Part shown: positions 10,895-41,757 of the stretch, piece after piece
Layout of the letters: every line of letters starts with the position of its first letter
How positions within the stretch are numbered: position 1 is the first letter of the stretch
From: Shigella phage Sf22
Sequence record: MF158045
Direction: 5' to 3' (one strand)
DNA: 64,000 nt
Made by a program: the position numbers and the translations under genes
Notes under the pieces: model-generated
What the model saw: only the letters and a program-made list of their open reading frames with translations
Told to the model about the DNA's origin: nothing
Databases searched by the model: none

Positions 10895-12220
10895 TTTGAT
10901 TTCCTCTAAATCTTTGGTGTATTCTGTAACTACATCAGTAGTTTTCCAATATTCGTTTTCTTCTTTTTTAGCTTTAGCTTCTTCTGCAAGTTTCTTTGCT
11001 TCGTCGGAAGTCATATGAAAAATATTCATTCCGACTAGTTTATCAACATAAGAAGAATACATCTCAATTTTAGAAAGTTCTTCAGTCAGTTCTTTACGAG
11101 TTTTACCCTGTACAACAATTTCACCTGAAATTACTTTCTTAATGAAATGTGCCTTGGCAAAGGCTAAACGAAATGCTGATTCAGTTTCTTTAATTTTGTT
11201 ATCAATTCGTTTTTGGACATAAGTTTTACGAACTTCAACAAAGTCTTTAATTAAATCAACTACGTTATCGTAAACTTGTAGCTTTCCTTTCTCATTAATG
11301 ACTGTAATATTTTGGGAACGACGCTCAATCAACCCGAAGTCTTTCATAATTTTTGCATGGCGTTCTTCTTCGTTATCGCTCAAAGAATATTCTTTACGGA
11401 ATTTAACTTTGAATCCAAACCCGTGCTCACCGCAAGCATCATCCCATGTAATGAAGCCTTTATCTTCAAGCGGGTCTAAGATTTTACTCACATAAGTTTC
11501 ACGATCATACTTATACGGAATCTCGGTGATATGCATTTGAGTTCGTGAAGTAAACTTATATGTTCCACGAATTTCATATTGCCCATCAATTTCAACGACT
11601 TCACCACGAAATTCTGGGAATTCTACCTTCGGTTTAGTTACTTTCTTTCCTTGAAGAGCTTGCAGTACAGCTTTCTTAACAGAAGAAACACTATGAGGAA
11701 GAATGTAAGTTGCATAACCAGTTGCAATACCGGAAACACCATTAAGAAGAACAGTAGGAATAATAGGCAAATAGAAAGCAGGCGGAATGTGTTCTTTATC
11801 TTGATGTACCGGAGCATATTCAGTATCTTTATATACGTTATAGAAATTTTTACTTACACGAGCAAAAATATAACGACTTGCCGCTGCCTTTTGGACAGTA
11901 CGAGAACCAAAGTTTCCTTGACCATCTAACAGAGGAAAGTTATTATTCCAAGTATTAGCCATCAAAGCACCTGCATCTTGTGCAGAGTTTTCGCCATGGT
12001 GATATCCAAGGTCCGCTACACCGCCTGCAATAGAAGCGAGTTTGTGAAACTTATCTTTATTTCCTCGTGCCAAATCAAGAGCTCGAGCAATAACAAATCG
12101 TTGAACTGGCTTAAATCCGTCAATCATATTTGGGATAGCACGATTTTCAACCGTGTACATAGCATAAGCCAGTGCTTCATTATCAATGATACTTTTTAAA
12201 TCGCGATTATTCAGTTGCAT
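10892..12220 (-). CDS. 52: DNA topoisomerase II medium subunit gp52
   Basis: 442 aa (T4 gp52 442 aa); GyrA/ParC-like N-terminus (GFKPVQRFVI). Confidence 0.95.
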   Translation of the reverse strand: MQLNNRDLKSIIDNEALAYAMYTVENRAIPNMIDGFKPVQRFVIARALDLARGNKDKFHKLASIAGGVADLGYHHGENSAQDAGALMANTWNNNFPLLDGQGNFGSRTVQKAAASRYIFARVSKNFYNVYKDTEYAPVHQDKEHIPPAFYLPIIPTVLLNGVSGIATGYATYILPHSVSSVKKAVLQALQGKKVTKPKVEFPEFRGEVVEIDGQYEIRGTYKFTSRTQMHITEIPYKYDRETYVSKILDPLEDKGFITWDDACGEHGFGFKVKFRKEYSLSDNEEERHAKIMKDFGLIERRSQNITVINEKGKLQVYDNVVDLIKDFVEVRKTYVQKRIDNKIKETESAFRLAFAKAHFIKKVISGEIVVQGKTRKELTEELSKIEMYSSYVDKLVGMNIFHMTSDEAKKLAEEAKAKKEENEYWKTTDVVTEYTKDLEEIK

Positions 12221-12357
12221 AAATTTACCATACTAGTGAATGTAGTGCCATAATAACATCAGAAATGAAAAGCACGACTTGAATTAATCCGAACATTACT
12301 CCATAATATAGTGCTACCAATAAAGTAGCAAGGGCTAATGAATAGCCCAAGATTTTC
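12221..12357 (-). CDS. Small hydrophobic peptide (about 45 aa)
   Basis: Manual translation MIKKILGYSLALATLLVALYYGVMFGLIQVVLF...; abuts the next small ORF. Confidence 0.35.
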
Positions 12358-12516
12358 TTAATCATTAGTAGATAACAACACAAATGTTAAATATGCACAC
12401 ATACCCTGGGCTAAAGCTTGTGAAAACACACTGCTAGCATCGATACAGATAGTTAAAACACATGCTACTATCCAACAAATAAATGAAATAACTCCTAATA
12501 ATTTTGCGATATTCAT
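12358..12516 (-). CDS. Small membrane protein (52 aa), paralog of adjacent ac-like ORF
   Basis: Internal Met start MNIAKLLGVISFICWIVACVLTICIDASSVFSQALAQGM preceded by SD GAGGAG; the ORF-track 62-aa start is probably artefactual. Confidence 0.5.
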   Translation of the reverse strand: MNIAKLLGVISFICWIVACVLTICIDASSVFSQALAQGMCAYLTFVLLSTND

Positions 12517-12526
12517 AATATTCTCC

Positions 12527-12682
12527 TCAACTATTTTTAGAACCAATGTACGCGAATAATGATAAAATCGCTAATACACCCTGAGCTGATGCTTGCAAAA
12601 ATACTGAAGTTTCTCCAGTTATTACTGTTCCGATGCATAAAAAGAACCAACAGAAAAAGGCTATACCGTGAACAAATTTCAT
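12527..12682 (-). CDS. ac: Small membrane protein (51 aa), ac-like by position
   Basis: Manual translation MKFVHGIAFFCWFFLCIGTVITGETSVFLQASAQGVLAILSLFAYIGSKNS; located between stp and 52 where T4 ac lies; size as I recall for T4 ac. Confidence 0.45.
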   Translation of the reverse strand: MKFVHGIAFFCWFFLCIGTVITGETSVFLQASAQGVLAILSLFAYIGSKNS

Positions 12683-12689
12683 ATTTTCC

Positions 12690-12770
12690 TCACTGGCGTC
12701 CGAAGACGCCTTTGGTTTTAAGATTGTTACGATAAAACTGCATCACATGTTCGTTATGGAAATTACTCAT
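12690..12770 (-). CDS. stp: Stp peptide (activator of host PrrC anticodon nuclease / restriction-alleviation peptide)
   Basis: Manual translation [26 protein letters not shown], 26 aa, matching T4 Stp as recalled; ATG overlaps ndd stop (TAATG). Confidence 0.9.
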
Positions 12771-13213
12771 TAATATGCCTGCAAAACAAATTTAAAGTTA
12801 TCAGCCAACATACGGTTCATTTCTTCAAGTGTTTGATACTCAGAATGATGATTACGAGTAAACGCTAAAGCTAACTGACCTTTTCCAAATCCCGTCGTCA
12901 GAGGTTTCATCTTAGAAGCAGGCAGATAAAACACCGTGTATACCATATTATTATTTGCAATAGTACGCGCAAGTTGAGACCGTCGTTGACGAATATGACT
13001 TAAAACCGCGCTGAATCCTTGCTTAGAACGCTGATTACCTACATAAAATCGTGCAGATACACATGAACCATCGAATTCACTTACTAAAAAGTAAAATCCA
13101 GGTTTAGACAAAATGTCTTTGTGTGGAGTTCCCAAAAACCACTCACCGCCCTTGATTGTACCAATAACAGTAGCGCCTGCGTTGTTCAGATCAGTAACAG
13201 CCATATATTTCAT
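12770..13213 (-). CDS. ndd: Nucleoid disruption protein Ndd
   Basis: ORF-track 163-aa frame; internal start [33 protein letters not shown] resembles T4 Ndd N-terminus, so the start was moved to 13213. Confidence 0.85.
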
Positions 13214-13273
13214 TTTAATTTCCTCTAAATTATTTTCTACTCCAAGGCCGCATGAATACATACGGCCGATAAA

Positions 13274-13489
13274 TTAATCGTCGCAGTCGACGCTCAATTC
13301 CCAAAACTCTTCTACAGTATAAGTTTCAGTATCATTTTCAATACAGAAACGTTCATTACTGTTATTTGCTAAAGTAGCGTTAACTGTCGGTTTCTCGCTA
13401 GTGCTCTTAAGAGGTGAAATACGAATTAACTGATCACCGTTATCTAAACAAAAAATTTCACCAACTTTTACATCTTTAAAACTTTTCAT
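13274..13489 (-). CDS. Hypothetical protein (71 aa)
   Basis: ORF track; in ndd-denB accessory cluster. Confidence 0.5.
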   Translation of the reverse strand: MKSFKDVKVGEIFCLDNGDQLIRISPLKSTSEKPTVNATLANNSNERFCIENDTETYTVEEFWELSVDCDD

Positions 13490-13604
13490 AATTCACCTCA
13501 AGGAGTATAAAATCCAAATGCAGTTGTTGACCATCCCATCCAATATGGGAAATTTGCACCAATGTAAAACATAAGAATATAAAACCAACCGCTCAACAAA
13601 TTCA

Positions 13605-13823
13605 TCATTTTACACCATTCCAAATTGTTTCAACTACGGATTTTAAACCATTTTGATGAATATCCATTCCGACTACCGCCATCAAATAGATTCCAACTAC
13701 AACTGAACCTAAGGCAAAAATCAGCATGAAAATGAATAAAGCCGGAAAAATATTATCGAAAAACCATTCAATAAATGTAAAAGCACTACGTTTACGCTTC
13801 ATATTTTCCTCACATAAATCCAA
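13605..13823 (-). CDS. Small membrane protein (up to 72 aa)
   Basis: ORF track; hydrophobic segment FPALFIFMLIFALGSVVVGIYLMAVVG. Confidence 0.45.
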   Translation of the reverse strand: MDLCEENMKRKRSAFTFIEWFFDNIFPALFIFMLIFALGSVVVGIYLMAVVGMDIHQNGLKSVVETIWNGVK

Positions 13824-13923
13824 AGTAAACGTTTAATACATCAATCATTAAAACGATTGGGAATATACTCAAAACTATTAGTATTATAACTACATTCCAT
13901 ATAGCTTTAATAATCTTTTTCAT
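13810..13923 (-). CDS. Small membrane peptide (37 aa)
   Basis: Internal start MKKIIKAIWNVVIILIVLSIFPIVLMIDVL with SD GGAGG; the upstream part of the ORF-track frame overlaps an early promoter. Confidence 0.45.
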   Translation of the reverse strand: MKKIIKAIWNVVIILIVLSIFPIVLMIDVLNVYFGFM

Positions 13924-13951
13924 TTTCTGTTCCTCCGTAGTTGATAGGGTA

Positions 13952-13981
13952 ATAGTACCACGGAAGAACAGTCTTGTAAAC
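13952..13981 (-). promoter_or_regulatory. T4-type early promoter upstream of small membrane peptide ORF
   Basis: Minus strand GTTTAC, 18 nt, TACTAT. Confidence 0.55.
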
Positions 13982-14166
13982 AACTTTTTTAAAAATATTC
14001 GTAATAAATGTGAATACCAACTACTACCGCTGAAACCTGTGCAACCCACCACGCGCAAGCAATAAGTACAGAATTCAAAATTTTCATAATAACCTCATTA
14101 CAAAAGTAAATGTTAAACAAATTACTGGAATACTAATTAACCAAACAAAACACCACCATAATGAAC

Positions 14167-14442
14167 TCATAGCTCAATCTCAGCGATTTTCATTTCATTA
14201 CTATTAATAGCCTCTTTAAGACTATCTGAAAGAATTACATTCCAGTGGTCATTCATATGACCATTAACTAAGCGTGTAATTTCTTCAGGAGTTGAAAAAT
14301 AAGGCTGATCAGACTCCCAATGCGATAATCCTAAGCGAGTATAAATCATGCCTTCATCATCGCTCGAATATTCAACTGACACAAACTCATCAGTTATTTT
14401 ATGTTTAGCGTAATAAAATTTAAATTTCATTTTATTCTCCAA
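14167..14442 (-). CDS. Hypothetical protein (91 aa)
   Basis: ORF track; early promoter immediately upstream. Confidence 0.55.
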   Translation of the reverse strand: MENKMKFKFYYAKHKITDEFVSVEYSSDDEGMIYTRLGLSHWESDQPYFSTPEEITRLVNGHMNDHWNVILSDSLKEAINSNEMKIAEIEL

Positions 14443-14467
14443 ATCCGTATCAGTAGTTGATAGTTGT

Positions 14468-14497
14468 ATAGTACCACGGTCCTTGTGGTATGTAAAC
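14468..14497 (-). promoter_or_regulatory. T4-type early promoter upstream of ORF 14167-14442
   Basis: Minus strand GTTTAC, 18 nt, TACTAT; same leader motif as the motA promoter. Confidence 0.6.
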
Positions 14498-14512
14498 TGT
14501 TTTGTGAAATTT

Positions 14513-15070
14513 TTAAATGGAAAGATACCATCCGCTGTAGTTGCTTTTTCTTACAACTTTACGAAGGTCTTCTCTGTCACCGATGAACTTCGGAGTGTAC
14601 TGGATGACACCTGGATGAATTTCTTTAGTGTTGAATATAATTATACAGTCAGCGACTTGATGATTTAGAATGGGCCCTAGATTTATTCCAGAACCATATG
14701 GATACTCTCCGCTGCATCCTGTTGTTACCGAAATCCAACGCGAGTCAGTTTGATGTGTCTTAACTTCTACGCGAAGCCCGCAGTATTTTGGATGCGCCAA
14801 TACATCCCATGCATATGTGTACGGATCATCGACATCTTCTTGGCCTTTATTGACATATCCGCTTAGCCAATCTGCCACAAAAAACTCTGCGTACACAGCG
14901 ATACGGCATCTTTCGATAACTTCTGCCTTATCCTGATTTGGATTTTGTTTTAAAGAGTATCTTGCTGTATCAGCAATTTTGACCTTCATTTCACTAGTCA
15001 AGTCACTGTTCGATAGGGTAAATGTCGGAATCTGAAATAGTCTCCGTAAACCCGGATTCGTTTTCTGCAT
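14513..15070 (-). CDS. denB: Endonuclease IV DenB
   Basis: 185 aa (T4 DenB 185 aa); position between ndd cluster and rIIB. Confidence 0.8.
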   Translation of the reverse strand: MQKTNPGLRRLFQIPTFTLSNSDLTSEMKVKIADTARYSLKQNPNQDKAEVIERCRIAVYAEFFVADWLSGYVNKGQEDVDDPYTYAWDVLAHPKYCGLRVEVKTHQTDSRWISVTTGCSGEYPYGSGINLGPILNHQVADCIIIFNTKEIHPGVIQYTPKFIGDREDLRKVVRKSNYSGWYLSI

Positions 15071-15099
15071 TAAACTTTCCTTTATGTCGGAATCATAAT

Positions 15100-15130
15100 T
15101 TCTCTTAAAACAAAAGGGCCGAAGCCCTTA
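15100..15130 (-). terminator. UUCG-loop hairpin downstream of the 64-aa ORF
   Basis: Minus strand AAGGGC-UUCG-GCCCUU plus U-rich tail. Confidence 0.5.
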
Positions 15131-15132
15131 TT

Positions 15133-15327
15133 TTATTTGAATTGTGCGATTCTTTTCTCTAGACACTCAGCATAAGATTTCATTGAGATGAACTGTGAAA
15201 GCAGCAGTTCTTGCTCAACTGCACTAACCGTTAGAAACTTTGTGCTTTCTAAAAATTTGCTCAGTGCATTAATTTTGAGCATTAATTGATCGTATTCTTC
15301 TTTTACTCGTGCTTGATAACCTAACAT
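15133..15327 (-). CDS. Hypothetical protein (64 aa)
   Basis: ORF track; flanked on both sides by near-identical GGGCCGAAGCCC hairpins. Confidence 0.5.
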   Translation of the reverse strand: MLGYQARVKEEYDQLMLKINALSKFLESTKFLTVSAVEQELLLSQFISMKSYAECLEKRIAQFK

Positions 15328-15346
15328 AATTTTCCTTAATATGATA

Positions 15347-15362
15347 AGGGCCGAAGCCCTTA
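15347..15362 (-). terminator. UUCG-loop hairpin downstream of rIIB
   Basis: Same AAGGGCTTCGGCCCTT element as at 15114-15129. Confidence 0.5.
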
Positions 15363-16298
15363 TTTAAATTGTTCAGTAACGTCTTCAACTACTTCGTATT
15401 GGCAGGTACGCATTTTAGCATCGTTGTAATCAATCGGAATTGATACTACATCACGCGGATGTACTTTAACTTTTACAACTCGGCTGGTTGAACTGCCAAA
15501 GTGACGAATATAAGATTTAGAACACACATGCAGACCACGAGAACAAGTTTGTGTATCATCGTCATTTACACGAGTACGTGGCATTTTAACTACTTTACCA
15601 GGACTGTTATCAAAGGTATTTGAGTGACAGTCAAAGTAATTGCTACGAACTACTTTCCAAGCATAGAAGTAACCATCTTCTGTAATTTCAATATCGTTTG
15701 CTACCAAGAAATCAAAGAGTCGAGATACCGCTTTCTGGCTTGGGTTTTCCAGCAGATTTTCCAAGAACGGAAAATAAAATTCAAAGTTTTCGCCTTTTTC
15801 CATCGAGTCAAGAATACGATCAACCAAACCAGACCGCAATTCGATATTTTGATAGAACAAGCTTCCACCTTCAATTCGAACATCGCCGGAAATATATTTT
15901 TCAACAGCGCGACGAACATTAATTTTTTGTGCCGCTTCTTCCAACTTATCTGCTACGAGCAGATTAAGAATTTCCTGGAAGTTTGAATGAGTATTAGGAG
16001 TTGCGTTATAAGTTACGCCATCAACAGTAATTGAAATGAATTTTTTAGATGCATTCCAAATAATGTCAGATTTAGCAACTGGAGCAATAACTGCATCGCT
16101 ATTAACTTTAACTGTAATATCACCGCTAATAGTAACTTTAGGGTGTTTAGCTTCTTCAGCATTTTTCAAAACACGACGGATTGTGTCAACCGATACATCC
16201 TTCCAATAAGCTAATTCCTGCTGAGTGTAATTACCACTTGAATACAGTTTAACAATTTCAGCTTGTTCGTTTTTGGTCAGGCATTTAATATTGTACAT
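15360..16298 (-). CDS. rIIB: rIIB protein
   Basis: 312 aa (T4 rIIB 312 aa); directly downstream of rIIA. Confidence 0.9.
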   Translation of the reverse strand: MYNIKCLTKNEQAEIVKLYSSGNYTQQELAYWKDVSVDTIRRVLKNAEEAKHPKVTISGDITVKVNSDAVIAPVAKSDIIWNASKKFISITVDGVTYNATPNTHSNFQEILNLLVADKLEEAAQKINVRRAVEKYISGDVRIEGGSLFYQNIELRSGLVDRILDSMEKGENFEFYFPFLENLLENPSQKAVSRLFDFLVANDIEITEDGYFYAWKVVRSNYFDCHSNTFDNSPGKVVKMPRTRVNDDDTQTCSRGLHVCSKSYIRHFGSSTSRVVKVKVHPRDVVSIPIDYNDAKMRTCQYEVVEDVTEQFK

Positions 16299-41727: not shown

Positions 41728-41757
41728 ATAGTACCATGGAAGAACAGTCTTGTAAAC
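41728..41757 (-). promoter_or_regulatory. T4-type early promoter upstream of ORF 41457-41705
   Basis: Minus strand GTTTAC, 18 nt, TACTAT. Confidence 0.6.

Follow-up and report, generated by a model that had tools for sequence, protein, structure and literature searches.

The ndd.2–ndd.6 cluster of Sf22

Within a 64,000-nucleotide (nt) stretch of the genome of Shigella phage Sf22 (MF158045), hereafter the window, the minus strand of positions 13498–14170 was found to carry five consecutive ATG-started hydrophobic open reading frames (ORFs) of 28, 32, 37, 65 and 35/36 amino acids (aa). Judged from sequence comparison, these ORFs are homologues of ndd.6, ndd.5, ndd.4, ndd.2a together with ndd.3 (one gene here) and ndd.2 of phage T4, and the run is a correct re-discovery of known, uncharacterised T4 genes. 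The best overall explanation of ndd.2–ndd.6, and one considered probable, is that they encode micro-proteins which are made early and by coupled translation, cross the inner membrane once and have an accessory role. The five ORFs are as follows.

14170..14084, minus strand: ndd.6 homologue, 28 aa, hydrophobic
14087..13989, minus strand: ndd.5 homologue, 32 aa, hydrophobic
13923..13810, minus strand: ndd.4 homologue, 37 aa, hydrophobic
13802..13605, minus strand: 65-aa ORF (T4 ndd.3 + ndd.2a), hydrophobic, 72 aa if an upstream TTG is used
13608/13605..13498, minus strand: ndd.2 homologue, 36/35 aa, hydrophobic

A preliminary description of this region, made from the DNA letters without database searches, had listed micro-ORFs of 27, 32, 35, 37 and up to 72 aa, and these sizes agree with the ORFs found. 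Its remark that listings of ORFs mis-start them was also borne out, as a rule taking the first start after a stop lengthens four of the ORFs from upstream TTG codons, to 82, 43, 72 and 41 aa. The grand average of hydropathy of the five products is 0.6–1.9, with best 19-residue Kyte-Doolittle windows of 1.2–3.1.

The window belongs to a Tequatrovirus (T4-like) genome. The ORF stretch shares 98.9% identity with Enterobacteria phage Kha5h and matches 506 phage genome records, nearly all of them Tequatrovirus. As in T4 (NC_000866/AF158101, in which ndd.2, 2a, 3, 4, 5 and 6 are T4p270–T4p275), the ORFs sit between denB (14513–15070) and ndd (12770–13261) in the same order and on the same strand, with stp, ac and 52.1 downstream on that strand. 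The peptides are 97–100% identical to the T4 products and every ORF gave a full-length PHROG match (E values of 1.6e-17 to 3.4e-30), so that family matches, locus position and order, and the selected reading frame all place them in the T4 ndd.2–ndd.6 families. The overlaps between genes and the positions of the early promoters are likewise shared with the T4 cluster. Two differences were noted: the T4 reference has a split ndd.3/ndd.2a where one 65-aa ORF is present here, and an 87-aa gene precedes ndd.6 here where T4 has an 8-codon remnant.

As T4 homologues, PHROG matches and a Pfam match exist, the ORFs are not unannotated novelties. The idea that such micro-proteins are a rarely annotated, overlooked class does not hold for this cluster: T4 has carried ndd.2–ndd.6 annotations for decades, there is a PHROG family for each and a Pfam domain of unknown function (DUF) for one, and the genes already appear in the T4 transcriptome, proteome, CRISPR interference and transposon-sequencing tables.

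Coding evidence and conservation

The locus was compared in 14 further Tequatrovirus genomes and in phages of the genera Mosigvirus, Dhakavirus, Gaprivervirus, Kanagawavirus and Marfavirus, and full-length matches were sought with tblastn against 50,697 phage genomes. Within Tequatrovirus, substitutions were distributed as follows (variable sites at codon positions 1/2/3; synonymous:nonsynonymous changes), the downstream gene ndd.1 being included.

ndd.6: 2/0/4; 5:1
ndd.5: 1/1/8; 7:3
65-aa ORF: 2/2/22; 21:5
ndd.2: 5/3/13; 14:6
ndd.1: 4/5/18; 19:8

In the two other frames of the same strand, used as controls, the ratio was inverted (e.g. 3:23). By this comparison the ORFs were shown to be under purifying selection. 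For ndd.4, with six variable sites within Tequatrovirus, too few to judge, the support for selection comes from the cross-genus comparison only, with a dN/dS (ratio of nonsynonymous to synonymous rates, NG86 method) of 0.12–0.16 against Dhakavirus and Gaprivervirus at saturated dS (~1.7–2.3). The corresponding cross-genus value for ndd.6 is 0.28–0.93, on 28 codons only.

Homologues were present at the same locus in all five of these other genera. The alignments show that particular residues are kept, beyond mere hydrophobicity and including mid-helix prolines, and the motifs of ndd.4, ndd.6, ndd.2 and the 65-aa protein persist in other Tevenvirinae genera. The preliminary description had proposed conservation in related T-even phages as a check, and a lack of both translation signal and conserved frames as grounds for discarding the ORFs; the reading frames are kept in these relatives, so that these grounds do not apply.

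On this comparative evidence the five ORFs are almost certainly real coding genes. Chance open frames in an AT-rich spacer between promoter cassettes might be suspected from their very short lengths, from a T-rich strand (41% T) which favours hydrophobic codons, from the lack of any peptide detected by proteomics and from the lack of a fitness effect on disruption, but this explanation is effectively refuted by the substitution pattern, third-position changes clustering in the frames of the ORFs but not in the controls. On their strand the five ORFs take up 89% of 13498–14170, and the other strand has a single such ORF; 2000 dinucleotide-preserving shuffles gave a mean of 1.9 such ORFs and 30% coverage, with at least five ORFs in 1.8% and at least 85% coverage in 0.05%. 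Amino acid motifs also survive in genera in which the synonymous sites of ndd.4 are saturated, ndd.6 matches RB69-group DNA at ~71% nucleotide identity, and changes of start codon leave frame and overlap intact.

Beyond the phage genome records, searches of protein collections of 5.8 billion and 1.84 billion sequences returned T-even-type relatives only (8 clusters for the 65-aa protein, 6 for ndd.4), and a viral-contig search with the 65-aa protein gave five loci, all near-identical. PADLOC and NCBIfam profiles run against seven proteins of the locus gave no family at E ≤ 0.1.

Individual genes

The ndd.6 product (phrog_8851, E = 1.6e-17) is 100% identical to T4 Ndd.6, is predicted to form a single hydrophobic helix and has the motif MSS..W...W...IP.IC..F. 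It gave full-length tblastn matches in 646 phage records, 154 of them at ~50% identity, and in each of the four genera compared it is 28–29 aa long, the gene being kept in Mosigvirus, Dhakavirus and Gaprivervirus. It should be noted that in RB69 and ST0 a stretch of ~250 bp between ndd.1 and ORF270c has been left unannotated. In RB69 (locus L008) this stretch holds a 28-aa ndd.6 homologue (2504–2590) and, in the position of ndd.5, a 36-aa hydrophobic ORF (2397–2507; MKNALLIVLRTICDTGFYIACSFTGTWLALTYFNVI) with no detectable similarity to ndd.5. The 32-aa ndd.5 product itself (phrog_5011, E = 3.6e-26) is also predicted to form a single hydrophobic helix; it was found in 489 phage records, every match being full length at ≥ 90% aa identity.

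The ndd.4 product (phrog_3098, E = 5e-21; 595 phage records) has an N-terminal KK..K followed by a helix, with the motif K.I.N......VL.I.P.V..ID, and its identity is 59–61% in Dhakavirus and Gaprivervirus and 61% in Kanagawavirus. The ndd.2 product (phrog_4135, E = 1.7e-24) has no charged residue, is rich in W, F and Y and has the conserved motif G.N.PYW.GW (G.N..YW.G in the cross-genus alignment). Matches occur in 517 phage records, 25 of them from Klebsiella phages at ~44% identity. In Marfavirus and Kanagawavirus ndd.2 adjoins ndd.4, and in Klebsiella phage P545 (locus L025, 1386–1611) and Enterobacter phage IME523 (locus L026, 1501–1747) an ndd.4-like and ndd.2-like pair of 35–39 aa each, with strong Shine-Dalgarno (SD) sequences, lies between denB and ndd, the 65-aa gene, ndd.5 and ndd.6 being absent from that interval. 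The presence of this pair alone in distant genera suggests that ndd.4 and ndd.2 may be the oldest members of the cluster.

The 65-aa ORF matches Pfam DUF7248 (E = 4.4e-20; 71.9 bits, the cut-off being 27) and phrog_2401 (E = 3.4e-30) and was found in 493 phage records by tblastn. In its product an N-terminal KRKR is followed by a kinked helix, and the C-terminal NGLKSVVETIWNGVK is conserved, appearing in the alignment as NGLKSV....WNG.K. The AlphaFold2 (AF2) model, with a predicted local distance difference test score (pLDDT) of 80, has helices at residues 4–17 and 19–64 with a kink at P20. In the T4 reference (locus L002, NC_000866, 3433–3629) one G is missing from codon 2 of this ORF (at 166,62x of the record), ATGAAGCGT becoming ATGAACGT, and the ORF is thereby split into 'ndd.3', which is in the wrong frame and is a PHROG singleton, and 'ndd.2a', which starts from Met26. 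The G is present and the 65-aa ORF intact in three other T4 records (KJ477684, OZ209023 and OL964735; loci L022, L023 and L024). A single wrong base in the T4 reference annotation is thus the probable origin of the split. In the T4 annotation used for HIDEN-SEQ, ndd.3 is given as 82 nt (bioRxiv 10.1101/2025.11.20.689424). A further record, 'T4_ev151' (LR597660), was considered for this comparison and rejected, as it carries the 87-aa ORF and is not a T4 derivative. The T4 'ndd.3' and 'ndd.2a' should be merged as one 65-aa DUF7248 gene.

Annotation of the cluster is patchy between genomes, with ndd.6 omitted in the Kha5h RefSeq record, T6 and Ge15. In one relative (locus L001, 2111–2224) the 37-aa ndd.4 has been wrongly named 'naphthalene 1,2-dioxygenase', and in T6 (AP018814; locus L010, 929–1233) the 65-aa ORF is labelled 'dNMP kinase' and ndd.2 'chaperone for long tail fiber formation', both spurious. 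The database labels 'outer membrane' and 'periplasmic' protein attached to these genes appear unsupported, no experiment behind them having been found.

Promoters and translational coupling

Two copies of a T4 early-type promoter motif were detected at the locus, and the cluster is flanked by two hydrophilic gene products.

14468..14497, minus strand: T4 early-type promoter motif GTTTACA-N13-GTGGTACTAT, exact match, upstream of the 87-aa ORF, ndd.6 and ndd.5
14430..14167, minus strand: 87-aa ORF ('ORF-X'), hydrophilic, mostly beyond the range flagged in the preliminary description
13952..13981, minus strand: T4 early-type promoter motif, second copy, in the 65 nt that separate ndd.5 from ndd.4
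13489..13274, minus strand: ndd.1 homologue, 71 aa, hydrophilic, phrog_2183

A scan for sigma-70-like promoters reads the first copy as TTTACA-17-TACTAT with a TG, and both copies are followed by a common 30-nt downstream repeat. When the whole window was searched for GTTTACA-N13-GTGGTAYTAT with up to two mismatches, ten copies were found, all on the minus strand (8196, 10661, 13952, 14468, 18727, 24027, 31482, 41728, 55779 and 63455), against an expected 0.03. The copies at 13952–13981 and 41728–41757 have a common 13-nt spacer and are one base apart overall. The two promoter copies at the locus therefore define two units, the first comprising ORF-X, ndd.6 and ndd.5 and the second ndd.4, the 65-aa ORF, ndd.2 and ndd.1 onward, ndd.1 being the next gene of the unit after ndd.2 and not a micro-membrane protein. 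Together with the early transcripts known in the literature for the T4 orthologues, the motif places these genes among the T4 early genes.

The overlapping stops and starts and the partly good SD sequences of the preliminary description were both recovered. Three junctions are of the ATGA type, namely that of the 87-aa ORF stop with the ndd.6 start (14170–14167), that of ndd.6 into ndd.5 (14087–14084) and that of the 65-aa ORF into the 36-aa ndd.2 (13608–13605; TGATG if the second ATG is taken), while the 37-aa and 65-aa ORFs are separated by a 7-nt gap. Good SD sequences (GAGG or GGAGG, 6–8 nt upstream) precede three of the five ORFs, those of 32 aa (GAGG), 37 aa (GGAGG) and 65 aa, and weak ones the ORFs of 28 and 36 aa. 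It was also observed that a string spanning ribosome-binding site and start, GTGAGGAAAATATGAA, is exactly common to ac and the 65-aa ORF.

Putative coupling is best documented for ndd.6, the start of which always overlaps the upstream TGA by four nucleotides (NTGA), whether it is ATG (Tequatrovirus, Mosigvirus and part of Dhakavirus and Gaprivervirus, e.g. JS98 and RZ), TTG (AnYang and IME341) or GTG (SP18).

Upstream 87-aa ORF and plasticity of the locus

The 87-aa ORF (14167–14430, minus strand) belongs to phrog_2390, the RB69ORF270c family, and is absent from T4. Its AF2 model reached a pLDDT of 89.6 in two of five models and ~40 in the others, and a structural search with it gave no PDB neighbour and matches only to uncharacterised T4-like phage proteins. 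T4 has lost the gene by a deletion between two AAATGAAA repeats; the 8-codon remnant, MKIAEIEL (locus L002, 3994–4020), which all four of the T4 records inspected contain, still overlaps the ndd.6 start. In T2 the slot upstream of ndd.6 holds an unrelated 68-aa gene with the same last codons, and a metagenomic protein (P0012) is a fusion of ORF-X and ndd.6. Within Tequatrovirus, alleles of the 87-aa ORF are 52–57% identical (window against loci L011–L014) while the adjoining ndd.6 is 96% identical, which indicates a mosaic or allelic replacement of this single gene.

These features resemble the promoter early stem-loop (PeSL) cassette shuffling described for hyperplastic regions of T4-like phages (Arbiol, 2010; Comeau et al., 2014; PMC4122927), in that early-promoter repeats bracket units of small ORFs and the content of the slot ahead of ndd.6 differs between the window, T2 and T4. 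Such shuffling has been illustrated with this very cluster, other ORFs taking the place of T4 ndd.4/.5 in PST (Comeau et al., 2014; PMC4122927). The locus differs in that a terminator scan found no stem-loop half of the PeSL beside either promoter (none at 13980–14000 or 14500).

Published data on the T4 orthologues

In a time-resolved transcriptome and proteome of T4, ndd.2, 2a, 3, 4, 5 and 6 are all early-class transcripts, and Ndd and Ndd.1 were seen as early proteins (Wolfram-Schauerte et al., 2022; PMC9697503, Table S2). All of ndd.2–ndd.6 were scored 'Not Fit' by CRISPRi-ART (PMC11879866), and neither knock-down nor transposon disruption carried a fitness cost in laboratory E. coli (PMC11879866; bioRxiv 10.1101/2025.11.20.689424). 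The viable deletion sa-delta-9 removes 52.1, ac, stp, ndd, ndd.1–ndd.6 and denB, and with it the T4-induced stimulation of phospholipid synthesis is virtually lost (Kutter et al., 2018; PMC6071114). A literature search found no ribosome-profiling study of T4.

Several observations weigh against the interpretation of ndd.2–ndd.6 as functional, coupled membrane micro-proteins. Insertion and topology are predictions only, made from hydropathy, charge distribution and the AF2 helix model. The T4 ndd.2–ndd.6 proteins have the class 'NA', that is, they were undetected by shotgun proteomics (PMC9697503, Table S2); such non-detection would be expected, as peptides of 28–65 residues that are hydrophobic have few tryptic sites. 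By HIDEN-SEQ all of the genes are 'Non-essential', with nearly every TA site hit, and the conditional hits (RexAB, RnlAB, CBASS, DarTG1, DarTG2 and minimal medium) are other genes (bioRxiv 10.1101/2025.11.20.689424). Within Tequatrovirus ndd.4 shows four nonsynonymous changes against one synonymous, all conservative changes among I, V, A and M. Natural disruptions were also found: T2 has a nonsense change, GGA to TGA, at position 45 of the 65-aa gene (locus L015, 1399–1533); in Shigella phage Sf25 an in-frame deletion has joined residues 1–32 of ndd.4 to the C-terminal 30 of the 65-aa protein, giving 62 aa (locus L014, 1036–1224); and in an IMG/VR contig (locus L006, 2369–2620) the end of ndd.6 is frameshifted and reads through to 83 aa. 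PST has been reported to have other ORFs replacing T4 ndd.4/.5 (Comeau et al., 2014; PMC4122927). The natural disruptions fit what would be expected of an accessory role.

Predicted membrane character and possible function

From these predictions it is likely that the five peptides are inserted in the membrane, and their sequences make it plausible that, as the preliminary description suggested, they could act on the host membrane. In the first minutes of infection ribosomes would read through each unit, re-initiating at the overlaps, and each product would be a single hydrophobic helix entering the host inner membrane. The N-terminus of ndd.4, ndd.5 and the 65-aa protein is predicted by the positive-inside rule to be cytoplasmic, as the basic end is N-terminal in each (KK..K in ndd.4, K2 in ndd.5 and KRKR in the 65-aa protein), and the conserved, partly polar tail of the 65-aa protein would then face the periplasm. 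As bacterial small membrane proteins do, the peptides would bind larger membrane proteins of the host or of prophages and modulate them, or would influence the physiology of the membrane; their part would be an accessory one that varies with the host or the conditions. The conserved in-helix prolines and polar residues point to specific helix–helix contacts and so favour binding or modulation. Such a function as modulators of host membrane proteins or physiology, which is argued by analogy, is put forward tentatively.

AcrZ, MgrB, MgtS, KdpF and CydX are small inner-membrane regulators of bacteria. With these the ndd.x peptides share a length of 30–65 aa, a single transmembrane helix (predicted here) and conserved residues on a helix face; there is no homology and the likeness is one of functional analogy only.

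It is also conceivable, although unlikely, that the peptides are superinfection-exclusion or anti-defence factors against membrane-associated host or prophage systems, relevant on particular hosts only. Their location in a hyperplastic accessory region in which flanking genes meet host defences (stp with PrrC, rIIA/B with RexAB), the cassette-like gain, loss and exchange at the locus and the dispensability of the genes on K-12 would all agree with this. However, they are not among the HIDEN-SEQ hits obtained with RexAB, RnlAB, CBASS, DarTG1 or DarTG2, and the micro-ORFs are > 90% identical at the aa level across ~490 genomes, unlike many fast-evolving anti-defence genes, the diversity lying instead in the neighbouring 87-aa ORF. 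A more specific and rather improbable proposal is that ndd.6, ndd.4, ndd.2 and the DUF7248 protein are coordinated early effectors docking on specific host inner-membrane proteins, with ndd.6 acting together with the coupled, variable 87-aa protein. If this were true, they might cause the phosphatidylglycerol (PG) stimulation mapped to sa-delta-9 or disarm membrane-based abortive infection in natural hosts.

In size and in having a single hydrophobic helix the ndd.x peptides resemble the toxins Hok, TisB, Ibs and Ldr, and a similar length and hydrophobic helix are also found in phage holins. Host-killing membrane toxins of a type I toxin-like or holin-like kind, depolarising or permeabilising the inner membrane early and so aiding host shut-off, might be envisaged on this basis, and for many of the small early genes of T4 cloning is lethal to the host (Kutter et al., 2018; PMC6071114). 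This is considered improbable. No Rfam antisense or toxin-associated RNA was found at E ≤ 1 in 12000–16000, which sets the ndd genes apart from type I toxins, and the profile searches tied the peptides to no known toxin, holin or defence protein. Holins are late and lie beside lysis genes, whereas ndd.2–ndd.6 have early promoters and transcripts and have denB, ndd.1 and ndd as neighbours, so that they do not form a lysis cassette. Early depolarisation would, moreover, be expected to harm the energy-dependent development of T4 itself.

The possibility that one or more of the peptides are the determinant of the T4-induced PG stimulation mapped to sa-delta-9 is likewise given a low probability. 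In its favour, the phospholipid stimulation all but disappears with this deletion, its specific PG part is likewise missing with rII-delta-DD2, a deletion that overlaps the first, and the deleted genes include none with a known lipid function and several predicted membrane proteins (Kutter et al., 2018; PMC6071114). The mapping is coarse, however, as the deletion spans ~13 genes, and no sequence link to lipid enzymes was seen. The stimulation is also lost in strains without dCTPase, EndoIV and Alc (PMC6071114), which makes denB, or an indirect effect arising from the DNA or nucleotide metabolism of the host, an equally good candidate.

Comparison with neighbouring small proteins and significance

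Three further micro-protein genes lie downstream on the same strand.

12690-12770, minus strand: stp, 26 aa
12527-12682, minus strand: ac, 51 aa
12358-12546, minus strand: 52.1, micro-protein gene

The stp product of the window is presumably identical to T4 Stp. Like ndd.2–ndd.6, Stp, Ac and gp52.1 of T4 are very small early products encoded in the same non-essential sa-delta-9 block, and for Ac and gp52.1, too, a membrane location is predicted. They differ in having no sequence similarity to the ndd.x peptides. Stp is a soluble peptide with PrrC as its target, and a drug-sensitivity phenotype is known for Ac, whereas no phenotype has been assigned to the ndd.x peptides. These three show that peptides of such a size from this region can be functional.

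The discovery value of the ORFs is small, T4 annotations having listed them for decades, and they are reasonable targets for small-protein-aware experiments. Shotgun proteomics could not establish that the micro-ORFs are coding genes kept by selection; the comparative evidence does. The ndd.2–ndd.6 genes form part of the 'dark matter' of phage small membrane proteins, within a block that is genetically linked to an unexplained lipid phenotype.

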